Source: Escherichia coli
Lineage (GTDB): Bacteria > Pseudomonadota > Gammaproteobacteria > Enterobacterales > Enterobacteriaceae
Direction: 5' to 3' (one strand)
Length of the DNA stretch: 36,351 bases
NCBI RefSeq assembly: GCF_017348835.2
Contig: NZ_CP072313.1
Shown here: positions 3,114 through 33,700 of the stretch, one piece after another
Numbering within the stretch: position 1 is the first letter of the stretch
Layout: every line of letters begins with the position of its first letter
Made by a program: the position numbers and the translations under genes
Notes under the pieces: generated by a model
The model's database searches: none
What the model was told of the DNA's origin: nothing
The model's input: only the letters and a program-made list of their open reading frames with translations

Positions 3114-3364
3114 GTTTCATTCTCCTTATATTCTTTCATCATGGTTAAAAGAATACTCTTATCAACAGGTTTTAAACCATTTTTTGTAAAATCTATTGCC
3201 CCAACTTCATTTTCATTAAAAACCAGTTCGCTTAACGTTCTCTTTGTCGTTTTAGTTTTTCCTTCTGTGTACACCTTTGAATAGCTGCTTATTTTTTTTA
3301 CAAAATGATATTTTTCATCAATCATTTCAAGATAATAAGTCAATCGCCCTTTGTTTTTTCTCAT
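3110..3364 (-). CDS. hypothetical protein (84 aa), translationally coupled to the HTH gene
   Basis: ORF in the track; 4-nt overlaps at both ends (3361-3364 and 3110-3113). Confidence 0.5.
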   Translation of the reverse strand: MRKNKGRLTYYLEMIDEKYHFVKKISSYSKVYTEGKTKTTKRTLSELVFNENEVGAIDFTKNGLKPVDKSILLTMMKEYKENET

Positions 3365-3903
3365 AACTGTTTCAAATATCCTGTAATTTTAACAAGTTGA
3401 TCTATGTTCAAGCCCCGAATCTGCAAATCATAACGCTCGCCCTGTTTGATGACTTTACCGTTCAATCCGTTTTCAACTTTAAAGCCTGTCAATGCCCCAT
3501 ACCAGCTTTCAAGCTGGACAAGTTGCGATAACATACCTTTCAGGATCAGAATTTCGTCCTTTTTTACCTCCTGGCTTTTCTCATACTCAATCGCCTGTAA
3601 CACCTCCTGCGAAGCATTTATCAGAATTTTTCGCTCGATATCGGCTGCTATATCAACGGGATTCCGCTTCCTAGATAACGTGCAAACATGATGCGGACTA
3701 CGCCAGGAACGACTGTCCACACTCCCCACAACAGAAAATCGCTCTTTTTCCATCCGAATATGCACGGAGTAATTTTTAAACTGCGGTGATGTCAGTTTTA
3801 TACGAGACGGACAATCATCAAGTTTGTTCACGCGCCAGCCGTTCCCCAAGATACGGCAGACAACTTCAAAGACAGGGTGATATTGTTCAAAAAAAGAGTT
3901 CAT
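3361..3903 (-). CDS. hypothetical protein (180 aa), first gene of a three-gene operon
   Basis: ORF in the track; no family recognised. Confidence 0.5.
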   Translation of the reverse strand: MNSFFEQYHPVFEVVCRILGNGWRVNKLDDCPSRIKLTSPQFKNYSVHIRMEKERFSVVGSVDSRSWRSPHHVCTLSRKRNPVDIAADIERKILINASQEVLQAIEYEKSQEVKKDEILILKGMLSQLVQLESWYGALTGFKVENGLNGKVIKQGERYDLQIRGLNIDQLVKITGYLKQL

Positions 3904-4006: not shown

Positions 4007-4522
4007 TTACGCTCTGTTTTCCACGCGTTGCCACCCTGTCGCCCTGCGCTGTCCAGTCGTACCGTATTTTGCGCGGATTTCTTCTATCGTGTGTTCTTCA
4101 CGATTCCAGTAACGTTTATGTTCTTCTGGACGATAAAACCATTGTTTTTTCTTTGCCGCCCATTTACACCCGATTTCTTTTAAAGTTTCTTTATGTGTAA
4201 TGGTATCTCCACTAATCCAGACCCAGTTACCTATAACTTCAAATACCAGACCTGATAAACCAGAAAGAACGTTTAATACTTTTTCCAGGTCGTCACCGTA
4301 ATTATATCGAGAATGTTCATCAGTGCTCTGAAACTGATTAATTTTATCGATGTTAGCCATGAGAAAATCAAAAGCTGCATTTACCGCTTTCATCAGTTCA
4401 GCCCCTAAAGGATTACGATCTGGATGATATTTTAACGCAGCTTTTCTGTATGCTGCTTTGATATCTTTTTCGGTTAATTCACCGGATAACCCAAAAACAT
4501 TTAACGCTTCCTGGATATTCAT
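4007..4522 (-). CDS. J-domain (DnaJ-like) protein, 171 aa, first gene downstream of module A3 promoter
   Basis: N-terminal J-domain with the invariant HPD motif (AAYRKAALKYHPDRNP); C-terminal part unrecognised. Confidence 0.7.
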   Translation of the reverse strand: MNIQEALNVFGLSGELTEKDIKAAYRKAALKYHPDRNPLGAELMKAVNAAFDFLMANIDKINQFQSTDEHSRYNYGDDLEKVLNVLSGLSGLVFEVIGNWVWISGDTITHKETLKEIGCKWAAKKKQWFYRPEEHKRYWNREEHTIEEIRAKYGTTGQRRATGWQRVENRA

Positions 4523-4950
4523 TTCAAATCTCCTGTCCGTTTGGACTTAAGAAGGAAAGGAGCCAATCTCCTTTCGATGAAACAATAATACATCTATTTG
4601 GATGTATTATCAAGGTTTCTGATCTGAAAAACGGTAAATTATTTGATGATTGTCACGCTGTTATCCGCGCCAGCGGATGTAAGGGGCGAACGAAAGTTCC
4701 AGGGTAGCACAGGAGCCACATCGCCCCGAAGCGCGGCAACGCCGCTACTGTTATCAACCGGAACCAGGGAACACCCTCCCGCCCTGCTAAGCCCGACTGA
4801 CTCACAGACAACGATGACGCTGATTTGCGCCGCAGAATGCCGCAGTTAGCGCTCGCGCCAGCGAGTTTACGCCGTCCAGGGTTTCCCTGGACGGGGCGCT
4901 GTACTGCGCGTGTGAGCGTCAGCGAGCTACGGGCGCAACACGCCAGAAGT
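4523..4950 (+). repeat. type-A module copy 3
   Basis: near-identical to 693-1123 and 2453-2866. Confidence 0.8.
4585..4613 (-). promoter_or_regulatory. sigma70-type promoter of module A3 (-35 TTGATA, 17-bp spacer, -10 TATTAT)
   Basis: same as the promoters at 755-783 and 2515-2543. Confidence 0.55.
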
Positions 4951-5104
4951 TAAGCAGCCCTCATTGGCATCCCCACGACCTGAAGGACGTGGGGTTACGT
5001 CGCATTTGACAGGGATTCCCCATGTAAATCTTAAAGATTCCTGTTGAACATCTTAAATACTTCTGTAGTATACCTATAGTAATTACCTAACAGGGGAGAC
5101 AGTA

Positions 5105-5770
5105 ATGGCTATTTATGCAATATCAATATCAAAAGGTGGGGTGGGAAAAACCACATCTGCTGTACATATAATCGATGAAATAAAGCCTGACGTTGTTTTC
5201 GATCTGGATTTACACCACAGCCTGAGCATAATTAACAGACTGCGACCAGCTGAAAAAAAATGGTCAATAGTGACAGTTTCAGACAAAGCAGAATTGCTCA
5301 CATATCTGAAAAAAATAAATGACGAAGGAAAAACGGCAGTTATCGACTGCGGGGGGTTTGATGCTGATATTAACCGCATCGCTATAGCTGTTGCTGATGT
5401 GATCATCGTTCCGGCAAATGACGATGTTACTGAGCAGATCGGACTTGCCACCTTCGATGCCGTCCTCGCCGAAATATCCAGACAAACAGGCAGAAATATA
5501 CAGGCCCATGTTCTGATGTGTAAAACACAACCTAATCAGAAAAACTTCCCTGATATGGACGATACAATGAAAAAGGTTAAACATATGGCGCTACTGAACG
5601 CTCGCTTATCATATCGTAAAGGACGCTATGGTTTTACCGATTCTTTGCGTAAAGGAATGGGGATAACCCAAATTAAGCATGGTCGTAGTTCACAGGCAGG
5701 ACGAGAAGTTATAGAGCTTGTAAAAGAATTACGCGCTTTATCTTCAGATAACACAGGTTTTCCTGCATAA
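5105..5770 (+). CDS. parA: ParA-family partition ATPase (small ParF-like)
   Basis: deviant Walker A box KGGVGKTT near the N-terminus; followed by a small RHH-like gene; GGAG Shine-Dalgarno. Confidence 0.8.
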   Translation: MAIYAISISKGGVGKTTSAVHIIDEIKPDVVFDLDLHHSLSIINRLRPAEKKWSIVTVSDKAELLTYLKKINDEGKTAVIDCGGFDADINRIAIAVADVIIVPANDDVTEQIGLATFDAVLAEISRQTGRNIQAHVLMCKTQPNQKNFPDMDDTMKKVKHMALLNARLSYRKGRYGFTDSLRKGMGITQIKHGRSSQAGREVIELVKELRALSSDNTGFPA

Positions 5771-5842
5771 ACCCCAAGAGAACCTTAAAGAAACACAAAG
5801 GATTTACCATAGATATCTTAAGGATTCATAAAGGATTTCCGC

Positions 5843-6082
5843 ATGAAAAACAAGCAATCCATTTTTGATGCCGCTCTCAATATTGGTAACGAAGCGCCTT
5901 TACAGGTAAAAAACGAAACGCCAAAACAACGGACGGTCAGAACAAAAACACTAAAAGCCATACCGACAAGATATTTTGATGCACACCTGAAATTAAGAGA
6001 AACAAATAAAACGAATCTCGATTTTTCCAATTACATAATGGAAGCACTACGGGAAAAACTGGAAAAGGATGGCGGACTTTAA
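5843..6082 (+). CDS. ParG-like ribbon-helix-helix centromere-binding protein (79 aa)
   Basis: position directly after parA; basic N-terminal tail and C-terminal RHH-like segment (NLDFSNYIMEALREKLEK). Confidence 0.55.
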   Translation: MKNKQSIFDAALNIGNEAPLQVKNETPKQRTVRTKTLKAIPTRYFDAHLKLRETNKTNLDFSNYIMEALREKLEKDGGL

Positions 6083-6236
6083 ATCTAAAGGGAACACCCA
6101 GGAAACACTTAGGATATCTGACGGAACCCCCATGTATTTCCATAAGTGTTTTTCGGGGTGCAAGCATCGTTCTTGCATTACAGTATTTCATGAACTACAA
6201 TGTAGTAACATACCTACCAGTATTTGAGGCAAGAAT

Positions 6237-6491
6237 ATGAAGATTACAACTCTATCCAGTCGGGAACTGAATCAGGATGTAACCAGGGCCAAACGCGCCA
6301 CAAGTGATGGTCCCGTATTTATTACGGATCGGGGTAAAACCGCGCACGTACTTCTTAGTATCGAAGAATACAGGAAATTAACGCAACAACGGCGAACTCT
6401 TATTGACATCCTGGCTATGCCTGATGCTGATGATGTTGAATTTGAACCGCAGCGAATTAATGTTGGTTTAAAACCAGCGGAGTTTTTGTAG
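6237..6491 (+). CDS. vapB: type II antitoxin, Phd/YefM-VapB type
   Basis: N-terminal antitoxin fold pattern (VFITDRGKTAHVLLSIEEYRKL); start of the next gene abuts its stop. Confidence 0.8.
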   Translation: MKITTLSSRELNQDVTRAKRATSDGPVFITDRGKTAHVLLSIEEYRKLTQQRRTLIDILAMPDADDVEFEPQRINVGLKPAEFL

Positions 6492-6907
6492 TGTATATTC
6501 TTGATACAAATGTTATTTCTGAGCTACGAAAGGCCCGTACGGGACGTATAGATAATAATGTTGCAAAATGGGCATTGCATACAGACGCGGCAGATTTCTT
6601 TGTATCTGTTATTACCATAATGGAACTTGAACAGGGAATATTACAGGTTGAGCGTCGAGATATACGCCAGGGGATTATGTTACGTTCCTGGATGGACCAG
6701 CATGTGTTACCAGCGTTTTCTGATAAGATACTTCCTGTAGATACTGCGGTTGCCTTACGTTGTGCTCGGTTACATGTTCCCGACAGACGCAGTGAACGAG
6801 ACGCATTAATAGCGGCAACAGCTCTGGTTCATGGGATGACCGTTGTCACCAGAAATGTTGGTGATTTTGAATTAAGCGGAGTATCAATTATTAATCCCTG
6901 GGATTGA
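6491..6907 (+). CDS. vapC: PIN-domain toxin VapC
   Basis: N-terminal MYILDTNVISE PIN signature with conserved acidic residues; classic antitoxin-toxin arrangement. Confidence 0.85.
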   Translation: MYILDTNVISELRKARTGRIDNNVAKWALHTDAADFFVSVITIMELEQGILQVERRDIRQGIMLRSWMDQHVLPAFSDKILPVDTAVALRCARLHVPDRRSERDALIAATALVHGMTVVTRNVGDFELSGVSIINPWD

Positions 6908-7031
6908 TATACCTTCCCTTTTTTAGATGCTGCAAGATTACACAAAGAACACAAAAGGAATACAAAGGATTTCCATAAGACATCTATAGAATTCCTTTTA
7001 GGAATCCAATAAAAATCCCAGCGACGACACA

Positions 7032-7193
7032 TTAAATGCCAAGTTTGCGGCGTGGACTATACAGTGTGTGATTCACCACTATGAATCCTTTGTTGATCCA
7101 CTGTGTTACCTGCGCAGGTTGAACTCCGGTCAGCCTGGCGAACGATGCCTGATTCCCCCGATAGAACTTGTTGATGTATTCAATCAAAGGCAT
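7032..7193 (-). CDS. small Cro/CI-type HTH DNA-binding protein (53 aa, MPLIEYINKFYRGNQASFARLTGVQPAQVTQWINKG...), not in the ORF track
   Basis: ATG with GGAGA about 10 nt upstream on the minus strand; HTH-like QASFARLTGVQPAQVTQW. Confidence 0.5.
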   Translation of the reverse strand: MPLIEYINKFYRGNQASFARLTGVQPAQVTQWINKGFIVVNHTLYSPRRKLGI

Positions 7194-7300
7194 TTTTTAA
7201 TTCTCCGCAACAATACGAAATCATATAGTAATTTACTATATGATTTATCTTTGGCAAGTAATTAACTTATCTGATTTCTTCCATTGGTAAGGGGGCTTTT

Positions 7301-8148: not shown

Positions 8149-9204
8149 CTAGTGGGGTGGAGAAGCTGTCAGGGCCAGTTCAAGCTGACGTAGATCCCTG
8201 GCTACCAGTTGCTCTAATCTTTCTTTAGTGCACCAGTACGCTTCGTCCGGCGACATACGCTTCAGAATAAACCGTGCAATTTCGTTTCGCTGTTCATCAT
8301 ACGGCAGTTTTGCAAGGCGATTGGCACGTTTGCGCTTTGCTGCTTTCTCTCGTCGGAACTTGATGGCATCGAGAGAACGCTGCGCATACCAGCGTTTACG
8401 AGCCGAGTGAACAGAGATTTCCTCGCCCTCGCGGATAACGCCTTCTTTAATCAGTTGCAGACGGATTTCACTTTCTGCAAGGCGCTTACGTTGCTGTTCC
8501 TGAAGTTTCACCAGATCAACTCCCAGCATTTTCCAGCCAGTTTCGGTGATCCAGACGTATTTCGGCAGTCGCTGGCGGGATTCACGGTCCCATATCGTCT
8601 TTTCTGACGTTCCCAACGTGCCAAAGGAAACCTGCTCTGCCAGCAGACGGGAAAGGCGCGATACTGTGACTGCGGTTTCAGGAATAACGTTTCCCTTACT
8701 GTCTTTTGGGCTTATTTCTTCTGCCAGGCGGGAGACAGACATGCCGACAGTGTGCAATCCACGATCACAAAAACTCACAAGTACAACCCATATTGCGTCA
8801 AGCAGCCGCTGTTTCTCCGGTCGGAATTTATATTTGCGACCGACACTCTGACGTTTCAGTACATAAAATGGATGCAACGACATATGCATTCTGAGTGTGT
8901 ACTGACCAGTGACCGGGTCTTTTTTAACGAGACGATTGTAAGCGTGGCCCAACTGTCCGCCCAGCGCCTTATAGCTGTCGGGACGGAACCAGGCTGGATT
9001 CTCACACTTTGGCTTAGTGGAATGTTCACCACGGCGGCGCTTCGTGCTCCGTTTTTCCGGTTCAACCAGAAATGACGTGGCCCTGCCCGATTCGTAATCC
9101 TCCCAGAAAAGGATTTGCTCTTCGGGAGACAGTTCACTCCAGTGTAATGAAGGCCTGTTCAGGGAAGCCATAAGCAATCGCTTATGGCAGAGCTTGATTC
9201 GCAC
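8149..9204 (-). CDS. repA: plasmid replication initiator RepA (IncFII/IncI-complex RepA family)
   Basis: overall resemblance to RepA1/RepZ-type initiators; GTG start at 9204, alternative ATG at 9171; terminator and DnaA box downstream, antisense-RNA-like hairpin upstream. Confidence 0.7.
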   Translation of the reverse strand: MRIKLCHKRLLMASLNRPSLHWSELSPEEQILFWEDYESGRATSFLVEPEKRSTKRRRGEHSTKPKCENPAWFRPDSYKALGGQLGHAYNRLVKKDPVTGQYTLRMHMSLHPFYVLKRQSVGRKYKFRPEKQRLLDAIWVVLVSFCDRGLHTVGMSVSRLAEEISPKDSKGNVIPETAVTVSRLSRLLAEQVSFGTLGTSEKTIWDRESRQRLPKYVWITETGWKMLGVDLVKLQEQQRKRLAESEIRLQLIKEGVIREGEEISVHSARKRWYAQRSLDAIKFRREKAAKRKRANRLAKLPYDEQRNEIARFILKRMSPDEAYWCTKERLEQLVARDLRQLELALTASPPH

Positions 9205-9264
9205 AGTGCATTTTTACACCGGACGATATTGAATAATGAGGAAAGCATCATGTATACTGTCTTC

Positions 9265-9346
9265 CAAGGGATTTCCCCTGCCCCCATTAAACTTTGATCG
9301 GCCTCTGCCAAGAAACGGATGCAAAGTTAATGGGGGTTTGTTTTTT
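9265..9346 (+). ncRNA. candidate antisense copy-control RNA (CopA/Inc-RNA-like) in the repA leader
   Basis: plus-strand promoter -35 TTGAAT (9229-9234), 18-bp spacer, -10 TATACT (9253-9258); 15-bp stem (9281-9296 with 9322-9336) followed by T-run 9337-9346. Confidence 0.45.
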
Positions 9347-10061: not shown

Positions 10062-10244
10062 ATGAGAGATGATAATTATCTTGATGGATTAATTGCCGGA
10101 GGTACTGTTGCAATTTCTTTTGCGGGACTGATTCTGTTAATCGTGAGTAATTTGAAAAACGAAGCTGAGACAGAAAAAACTGCATTTTATGAATGGGCCG
10201 ATTCACACTGTGAAAAAATTGAAAAACATTTTAAATGTTACTGA
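10062..10244 (+). CDS. small membrane protein (60 aa)
   Basis: AGGAGA Shine-Dalgarno 6 nt upstream; one hydrophobic helix (GLIAGGTVAISFAGLILLIV). Confidence 0.45.
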   Translation: MRDDNYLDGLIAGGTVAISFAGLILLIVSNLKNEAETEKTAFYEWADSHCEKIEKHFKCY

Positions 10245-10315
10245 AAATTCGAAAACATTTAAGTGTGATGACGGAAAAATTTACACAATAAAATGGTGAA
10301 ATAGATTAACATGTT

Positions 10316-29553: not shown

Positions 29554-29684
29554 TATCTAATGACACGTCTGAAGTATCCGATTAACCAGGGGTGGTTTGT
29601 CGACTTTAGATTGTGCCATATATGGAGTTGTTAGAAGAAAAGGGACTTCCTCCGGTCGGAGCCACCAACTCAAGGCCGGAAAAC

Positions 29685-29716
29685 AAAAAAGCCCGATTAC
29701 CAGTCGGGCTTTTTTG
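29685..29716. terminator. bidirectional rho-independent terminator between convergent topB and relaxase genes
   Basis: AAAAAA-AGCCCGA-TTACCAG-TCGGGCT-TTTTTT; works on both strands. Confidence 0.6.
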
Positions 29717-33560: not shown

Positions 33561-33700
33561 ACCTACACAACAACCCACACACAAAAGCATGAAGCCCACA
33601 AAACAACCCACACTTAAACCCACAAAAAAGACCACAAAACCTATTGACAACCCACACAACACCCCACATAATCACCCACACTAACGAAAAGCAAATTGAT
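33545..33700. repeat. array of about 9 CCCACA-containing direct repeats at about 10-12 bp spacing
   Basis: CCCACA recurs (agCCCACAtt, caaCCCACAcac, agCCCACAaaa, aaCCCACActt, aaCCCACAaaa, ...), upstream of the StbA-like gene. Confidence 0.6.

Follow-up and report, generated by a model that had tools for sequence, protein, structure and literature searches.

Repeat arrays phased at 11 bp around a parA gene pair of an Escherichia coli IncI2 plasmid: a probable type Ib partition module

Introduction

A stretch of Escherichia coli DNA carrying a parA gene, a short open reading frame (ORF) directly after it and a toxin-antitoxin (TA) pair raises the question of what the short repeats lying around these genes are for, and of which protein reads them. 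The stretch (contig NZ_CP072313.1; 36,351 nucleotides (nt), hereafter the window) is, to judge by its sequence, an E. coli IncI2 plasmid, its region 4950-7050 being 100% identical to pDETEC35 and 99-100% identical to three further plasmids, all four of them typed as IncI2. An earlier note on this DNA had described a dispersed motif of 20-25 bp around the partition and TA genes, and had suggested a centromere or operator bound by the putative ribbon-helix-helix (RHH) protein of 79 amino acids (aa) encoded after parA. The analysis presented here outlines four arrays of a degenerate 11-bp unit, and its results are consistent with the segment 4941-7030 being, with good probability, a type Ib (RHH-ParB) partition module, in which the arrays would act as centromere and operator, RHH-like dimers would bind cooperatively along one face of the DNA, and the operon would regulate itself.

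Results

Four arrays of a phased 11-bp unit

The sequences cited in the earlier note are all present (ACAAAGGATTTACCATAGATATC at 5795-5817, TCATAAAGGATTTCCGCA at 5826-5843 and ACAAAGGATTTCCATAAGACATC at 6962-6984), as are the half-site-like variants in the places given for them (5010-5045, 6085-6150 and 6990-7010). The repeats are real, but the unit of 20-25 bp ascribed to them is not borne out: autocorrelation gives a unit of 11 bp with an 8-bp pseudo-palindromic core, and the copies, instead of being dispersed, stand in register in four arrays. The arrays, the gene pair and the putative parA promoter are laid out as follows (periodicity and core scores are described below):

5013..5078, array A: 5-6 units in 11-nt phase with a dominant 22-nt period, among them GGATTCCC, GTAAATCT, AGATTCCT, GAACATCT and ATACTTCT; periodicity 0.54, core score 33
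5044..5071, + strand, putative parA promoter: TTGAAC (5044-5049), 16-nt spacer, TAGTAT (5066-5071)
5105..5770, + strand, parA: 221 aa
5789..5843, array B, in the gap between parA and the 79-aa gene: 5 units, AGAAACAC, GGATTTAC, AGATATCT, GGATTCAT and GGATTTCC; periodicity 0.53, core score 35
5843..6082, + strand, gene for the putative centromere-binding protein: 79 aa, starting 72 nt after parA
6090..6144, array C, directly 3' of the 79-aa gene: 5 units, GGGAACAC, GGAAACAC, GGATATCT, GGAACCCC and GTATTTCC; periodicity 0.44, the weakest of the four, core score 32
6934..7021, array D: about 8 units with a 1-nt phase slip, AGATTACA, AGAACACA, GGAATACA, GGATTTCC, AGACATCT, AGAATTCC, GGAATCC and AAAATCC; periodicity 0.56, the highest in the window, core score 35

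The four arrays comprise about 23 degenerate units of 11 bp, and in the 11-nt register the core of each unit is an 8-bp pseudo-palindrome close to GGAwwTCC. One unit lies inside the spacer of the putative parA promoter, which itself falls within array A, and the last unit of array B provides the AAGGA Shine-Dalgarno sequence of the 79-aa gene. A repeat search recovered a 49-nt block in three copies (at 5779, 6080 and 6946) and a 28-nt block recurring at 22-nt spacing, with array C appearing as a 61% copy of the array B reference block.

The evidence for these arrays comes from word counts, periodicity and core models. The long motif of the earlier note, ACAAAGGATTTMC, has 7 matches in the window when up to 2 mismatches are allowed, against 2.6 expected, and 5 of the 7 lie within 5751-7093. 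Unbiased word counts gave 4 copies of AAGGATT in the 505 nt between genes, where the frequency of the word in the window itself would predict 0.18. In each of the four intergenic blocks the base autocorrelation has maxima at lags 11 and 22 (0.38-0.51, the background being about 0.25-0.30), with no peak in these blocks at neighbouring lags and none in any of them at lags 7 and 14. A combined lag-11/22 score of at least 0.50 is reached in only three places of the 36 kb, corresponding to arrays A, B and D, all above the maximum of 0.52 found in 30 locally shuffled windows.

Under a phased model of five core units, the four blocks take the top four places in the window (35, 35, 33 and 32, against a mean of 15.7, standard deviation 3.1, and a next-best score of 28), although the magnitude of these scores is partly circular, the model having been built from the blocks and their relatives. 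When each block was omitted in turn from the construction of a weight matrix, 2.4-6.9 matches per 100 nt were obtained in the omitted block and 0.5-0.7 elsewhere. The exact single core RGAWWYCC is not enriched over the window (23 matches, 19 expected), and what carries the signal is the clustering in phase rather than the word as such. Tandem Repeats Finder picks up only part of array D (period 11). The phased core scan of the window revealed no further arrays of the core motif, which would have been a sign of a regulon; a single isolated site lies at 9264-9276, upstream of repA.

Covariation of the array core with the small protein

In tblastn searches the 79-aa protein was found in 1,325 plasmid records and ParA in 1,351. 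The pair is present in approximately 1,330 of 72,556 PLSDB plasmids (about 1.8%), including most IncI1-type resistance plasmids, in which the genes are called yefA and yegA, and the KPC carrier pKPC_UVA01. The two genes are adjacent in every locus fetched, and they are the only genes that these plasmids have in common at the locus. The small protein is 83% identical in pKPC_UVA01-type plasmids and about 53% identical to YegA, whose gene adjoins yefA in plasmids of IncI1/IncK and in some of IncF, and more distant copies occur in plasmids of Klebsiella, Erwinia, Salmonella, Vibrio and Aeromonas and in metagenomes. An exhaustive profile search of 1.84 billion proteins yielded only 59 clusters at 50% identity, which indicates that the small-protein family is small and coherent.

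The arrays accompany the ParA and 79-aa pair on unrelated replicons (IncI2, IncI1/K, IncF, pKPC_UVA01-type, Vibrio and Aeromonas plasmids). In 15 of 16 relatives, 11-nt periodic arrays were identified upstream of parA and in the gap between parA and the small gene, and usually also 3' of the small gene and of the gene or genes that come next. The position of array C, in particular, also holds an array in loci L003, L005, L006, L008, L010 and L012, and promoter-like sequences of the form TTGAAY/TTGCAT-16/17-TAnTAT likewise fall within array A of L003, L005, L006, L008 and L012. The sixteenth relative, a metagenome locus (L021, 453-600), has a 20-nt repeat instead, tatgaatgcatgactatcgg, of which seven almost perfect copies follow the small gene.

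The core of the arrays varies by lineage together with the segment preceding the two helices of the small protein, a putative strand, as the following raw tabulation, made without phylogenetic correction, illustrates:

strand KTLKAIP, core GGAwwTCC: window, L003, L006, L007, L012
strand KNLKAIP, core GGrTATCC: L004, L010, L014
strand KSLAAVP, core AGATATCT: L008
strand KLLNAMP, core AAATATTT: L009
strand KEIRNMP, core TAATAyyA: L011
strand KNLQIP, core ATGTACAT: L013

Given that the core tracks the small protein, that parA and the small ORF are the only genes shared at the locus, and that ParA has no specific DNA-binding domain, it is likely that the small protein reads the repeats.

In the IncI1-K and IncF loci L004 and L014, yefA and yegA are immediately followed, in the same orientation, by a ParM/ParR pair (type II), forming a tandem double par locus, whereas the pB171/pO86A1 type is divergent (L023 42998-45508).

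Features of ParA and the 79-aa protein

The ParA of the window is a Walker-type ATPase with a deviant Walker A motif (SKGGVGKTT, residues 9-17) and without an N-terminal helix-turn-helix (HTH) extension. It matches the AAA_31, MipZ and CbiA families of Pfam and, over its full length, the NCBIfam ParA_partition model (E=7e-20, below the curated equivalog cut-off). Its sequence matches in the PDB are weak and include MipZ, ParF and TP228 ParA (ParF E=8e-4). Its short length, the deviant Walker A motif and the lack of an HTH indicate that this ParA is not the specific DNA binder.

The 79-aa protein encompasses an N-terminal tail (MKNKxS[IL]FD...ApLQ), a variable linker, a putative K-T-L-K-A-I-P strand and two helices. 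The N-terminal motif is kept across the family, and this conservation, by analogy, would fit the ParA-activating tail of known RHH-ParBs. No match to the protein was returned by Pfam, NCBIfam, PDB phmmer or PDB profile searches (with 16 and 49 sequences); no Pfam or NCBIfam model covers the family, and databases name its members "chaperonin", "GroEL" or "hypothetical". An AlphaFold2 (AF2) model of the monomer, with a predicted local distance difference test (pLDDT) score of 66, shows an extended segment followed by helices at 43-54 and 61-76. A single-chain dimer, modelled from an alignment of 16 sequences as two copies of the C-terminal domain connected through a 20-residue linker, reached a predicted template modelling (pTM) score of 0.63, with confident helices and N-terminal strands below pLDDT 50. 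Foldseek searches returned nothing for the monomer model, a result that is uninformative, nor for the fused dimer. For the fused-dimer model, the three best-scoring known RHH matches (ranks 1, 3 and 10) are Arc, TraY and VirC2, which are the single-chain RHH dimers of the PDB. An RHH fold is thus regarded as likely, but not as established.

A swapped maintenance cassette with a cargo slot

The outer limits of the system were defined by comparison with a canonical IncI2 plasmid (NZ_CP055102; L018), homology to which ends at 4940 and restarts at 7031. The features involved are:

4941..7030, + strand, maintenance cassette (2.09 kb): array A, parA, array B, 79-aa gene, array C, phd-vapC, array D
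6160..6922, + strand, phd/yefM-vapC cassette, between arrays C and D
6237-6491, + strand, phd, antitoxin gene of the Phd/YefM family (Pfam PhdYeFM)
6491-6907, + strand, vapC, PIN toxin gene (Pfam PIN)

Between the two breakpoints the canonical plasmid carries a different ParA (21% identity), a 94-aa ORF with only a 21-residue local match to the 79-aa protein, TGTAAAG-type repeats, proQ/finO and hok. With ParA, small ORF and repeats all differing, the module of the window does not belong with the canonical IncI2 partition module. On the evidence of these breakpoints, the segment 4941-7030 is a swapped maintenance cassette, with array A and array D as its outermost elements; just 4 PLSDB records, every one of them IncI2, hold it in full. 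The coincidence of the cassette boundaries with arrays A and D indicates that array D belongs to the partition module, so that the copy noticed after vapC is not a stray one but part of the outer boundary of the cassette, homology resuming at 7031.

In the canonical plasmid, TGTAAAG/CTTTACA words surround the 21%-identical ParA (L018 1800-1930 and 2600-2660), and the 94-aa ORF has an RHH-like C-terminus; this module looks like a parallel, also apparently uncharacterised, system. Directly to the left of the cassette lies a GC-rich (62-64%), non-coding element of about 280 nt (4659-4940), which occurs twice in the canonical plasmid (L018 585-862 and 1483-1769) at about 79-80% identity and has no Rfam match. 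This element may be a recombination site for cassette exchange. Repeats flanking the cassette, the mark of a mobile element, were looked for and none were found.

The TA pair had been taken for vapBC, but its antitoxin is of the Phd/YefM type and the pair is properly phd-vapC. It presents its own promoter (TTGCAT at 6173-6178, 17-nt spacer, TACAAT at 6196-6201), and the pair with this promoter (approximately 6160-6922) is 88.8% identical to cassettes of IncF plasmids that have no parA or arrays nearby. On either side this homology breaks off at most a few bases from an array, beginning where array C ends and halting where array D starts. By these homology limits phd-vapC is independent cargo, occupying a slot that arrays C and D enclose. 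The slot is filled in relatives by other, unrelated small genes, and Pfam scans of these array-flanked cargo genes returned nothing. An insertion of phd-vapC into a once-contiguous C and D array was also considered and found unsupported, relatives L003, L005, L008 and L012 holding another small gene there; a cargo slot appears to be a better description than an array split in two. In relatives, anti-restriction genes and others of the leading region also have arrays in front of them, with about six arrays in successive gaps of L007 and an array upstream of an anti-restriction gene in L003.

A 14-nt length difference in CP044026 was examined as a possible gain or loss of a unit and rejected: it consists of single-base deletions, mostly in short same-base runs, which are probable assembly errors.

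Other features of the window

Several other elements of the plasmid were outlined in the course of the analysis:

3361-3903, - strand, 180-aa ORF without family match, adjoining the DnaJ gene
4007-4522, - strand, plasmid-borne DnaJ (J-domain) protein, 171 aa, just left of the cassette
7032-7193, - strand (convergent), 53-aa HTH-like ORF of the IncI2 backbone, with weak YdaS/DicC likeness
8149-9204, repA, IncFII_repA type, about 1.1 kb from the repeats
29631-29716, + strand, AgrB (RF02891), an annotated antisense RNA family, 61.9 bits against a gathering score of 40

The DnaJ gene and the 180-aa ORF are both kept in other IncI2-like plasmids, and AgrB is the sole Rfam match in the window. The promoter region upstream of the 53-aa ORF contains, at 7218-7246, a perfect inverted repeat of 14 nt (AAATCATATAGTAA/TTACTATATGATTT), and a 15-nt near-copy of this palindrome, TATAGTAATTACCTA, is found at 5075-5089 in the parA leader, which may reflect cross-regulation or chance.

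Other spots of 11-nt periodicity (3989, 10215, 29983, 33596 and 33963) were set aside, their sequences being unrelated to the core motif. A second, unrelated phased array, with CCCACA-containing units (cccacaaaacaa cccacacttaaa cccacaaaaaag accacaaaacc ... cccacacaacac cccacataatca cccacacta), lies at 33590-33690 among short overlapping ORFs only, and is probably a binding array for another plasmid protein. At 10205-10290, about 1 kb past the start of repA, GAAAAAnnTT and AAACATTT words also show 11-nt periodicity and are unrelated to the par motif.

Discussion

The interpretation of the repeats as centromere and operator, already put forward in the earlier note, emerges as the best-supported one: the arrays travel with the gene pair across replicons and hold their positions, their core covaries with the putative strand of the small protein, and array A holds the putative parA promoter. 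The locus presents several of the features that define type Ib systems, namely a small ParA with a deviant Walker A motif and no HTH, a small gene for the candidate binder directly after parA and co-inherited with it, and iterated short repeats overlapping the operon promoter, the last of these as sequence anatomy only. The pair most likely represents a widespread and apparently never characterised partition family, with an anatomy matching the type Ib/RHH-ParB class.

In the mechanism that we propose, the 79-aa protein would dimerise through a C-terminal RHH-like domain, and each dimer would read one 8-bp pseudo-palindromic core (approximately GGAwwTCC). As the 11-bp spacing of the cores is close to one helical turn, 5-8 dimers would align on nearly one face of the DNA and occupy every one of the four arrays cooperatively. 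Their presence at array A would lead to autoregulation of the operon, the coated arrays would together constitute the partition complex (centromere), and the conserved N-terminal tails would stimulate the ATPase of ParA, so that plasmid copies are positioned over the nucleoid. That the 79-aa protein binds this DNA, represses the parA promoter and stimulates the ATPase, and that the plasmid is stabilised, is inferred here from sequence.

A number of observations weigh against this interpretation. The arrays of the window are the most degenerate among all those examined, and the periodicity of array C (0.443, as high in 0.4% of windows) is not significant alone. The putative parA promoter agrees with the consensus at 8 of 12 positions and was thus not listed by a consensus scan. 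Since no gene starts downstream of array D, its presence cannot be put down to an operator role. In RCS93_pII (L002; 99.5% identical), 8 of 10 substitutions fall within the arrays (5018, 5021, 5801, 5816, 5829, 6096, 6148 and 6981) and 2 in coding DNA, several of the changes shifting a unit toward the palindromic consensus (e.g. AGACATCT to AGATATCT at 6981); their concentration in the arrays suggests that individual units are weakly constrained and turn over fast. Finally, the literature searched contained no paper on the 79-aa/ParA family, nor any characterising yefA/yegA, the IncI1 partition or the pKPC_UVA01 partition, the latter being weak evidence given that subscription journals were thinly covered.

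The alternative that survives best is that the arrays are purely transcriptional operators, the 79-aa protein being an omega/KorA-like regulator of parA, of its own gene and of the cargo, with one array or none serving as centromere. Array A overlaps a putative promoter, arrays precede several small genes in relatives (L007 and L003), and RHH partition proteins are known to act also as repressors (PMC5016525; PMC9499535). The cassette, however, ends with array D, downstream of which no gene begins and only the 3' end of a convergent gene follows, leaving nothing to regulate, and the small protein is always paired with a ParA ATPase. Moreover, in known type Ib systems the operator is centromere DNA, which makes this alternative a subset of the partition interpretation from which partition has been removed, and we regard it as unlikely.

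The covariation of core and strand bears on a second alternative, by which the repeats are bound by ParA, by a host nucleoid protein (IHF, Fis or H-NS) or by the product of the 53-aa HTH-like ORF. Cores that differ among relatives in the same hosts while tracking the small protein would not be expected of a host factor, even though AT-richness and helical phasing, both present in the arrays, are common in bent DNA and in nucleoid-protein sites. ParA lacks a domain for specific DNA binding, and the 53-aa ORF, which the 15-nt match between 5075-5089 and 7224-7238 ties to the parA leader through the palindrome upstream of it, belongs to the IncI2 backbone, lies outside the cassette and is absent from the loci of relatives. 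This second alternative is accordingly given very little credence. Least plausible of all is that the repeats are replication iterons, or functionless debris of duplication or chance in AT-rich intergenic DNA, for although repA is only 1.1 kb away, individual cores are not enriched window-wide and the units are degenerate and gather substitutions, the arrays do not qualify as iterons (RepA belongs to the IncFII_repA type, the arrays go with the par pair on unrelated replicons, and the canonical IncI2 repA region is 94% nucleotide-identical yet lacks the motif), while the phasing of A, B and D exceeds all shuffles and position and period are conserved as the sequence diverges.

Beyond the type Ib partition module itself, a more speculative extension, which we put forward only tentatively, is that the arrays go beyond one centromere and an operator and delimit interchangeable cargo slots, and that the 79-aa protein is an enterobacterial counterpart of omega, a single factor tying partition to its own dosage and to the expression or insulation of the maintenance genes that the arrays flank. 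It would do so as a one-faced, 11-bp-phased protein filament, unlike the helical wrap of omega on heptads. Were this the case, the rapid turnover of core sequences and the swap of the whole cassette in IncI2 would amount to selection to escape partition incompatibility. More generally, the results point to partition cassettes being exchanged whole, TA passenger included, within the IncI2 backbone. The probable sites (an 11-bp phased unit and an 8-bp palindromic core, with variants by lineage) offer testable targets for work on stability, incompatibility and curing strategies, and the family offers a natural series of protein/site specificity pairs for the reading of DNA by RHH strands.

Comparison with known systems

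Arc, Mnt, CopG, MetJ and the F plasmid TraY, all of the RHH superfamily, are plain repressors or relaxosome factors with 2-5 sites, without a ParA partner and without an N-terminal ATPase-activating tail. Another system compared is the ParB of pCXC100 from Leifsonia, whose dimers bind nine tandem 9-bp repeats successively and cooperatively, with Lys and Thr residues of strand beta1 reading the bases, and whose RHH fold was unpredictable from sequence (PMC3074162). The K-T-L-K segment of the 79-aa protein is comparable to that base-reading strand, but the pCXC100 repeats are unspaced and non-palindromic and form a single array, the host is Gram-positive, and there is no homology.

The ParF/ParG/parH system of TP228 has a similar layout, with a parA-like gene followed by a small RHH gene and with degenerate short boxes, and ParF is among the closest solved relatives of the ParA described here, although only at E=8e-4. 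ParG binds arrays of degenerate tetramer boxes in an upstream centromere/operator (PMC3130281). In parH, tetramer boxes of the ACTC type are set apart by AT-rich spacers of 4 bp, all within a single region of about 100 bp upstream, whereas of the four arrays of the window one separates the two genes and two follow them. Membership of the ParG family is not supported for the 79-aa protein, which has no Pfam match of any kind, and the repeat unit of the window is 11 bp with a GGAwwTCC core.

In par2 of pB171, centromeres parC1 and parC2 lie upstream of parA and downstream of parB (PMC4270457), and the system of the window resembles it in having arrays on both sides, a small ParA and a small, putatively RHH-type ParB on an E. 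coli plasmid. The comparison was made with the pB171-type double par locus of pO86A1 as a proxy, with 21% identity between the two ParA proteins (E=2e-4), no BLAST alignment between the 79-aa protein and pO86A1 ParB, and an hhalign probability of 0.7% for the latter pair. The repeats of the pB171 type are short TTCACA-like words and no array lies there between parA and parB, so the locus falls outside the pB171 par2 family.

The delta/omega system of pSM19035 offers the last parallel. The omega protein binds arrays of 7-10 heptads that overlap promoters, with at least four contiguous repeats needed (PMC9499535), and the TA pair epsilon/zeta lies directly downstream of its gene (PMC9499535; PMC5016525). 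There is no sequence similarity between the two systems, and the 79-aa protein is no member of the omega family, lacking a match to Pfam Omega_Repress and having a period of 11 instead of 7. The heptads of pSM19035 (WATCACW, 7 bp) are contiguous and non-palindromic and their dimers spiral around the DNA, unlike the 11-bp, nearly helix-phased units described here; in the window, parA and the gene for the putative binder are adjacent and in the same orientation, and the TA pair has its own promoter. Both systems, nonetheless, combine a small ParA with a small RHH-type protein, here a predicted one, bearing a flexible N-terminal tail, both display several separate arrays of short repeats, and in pSM19035 a single protein acts as centromere binder and as regulator, the same double role that is proposed here for the 79-aa protein.

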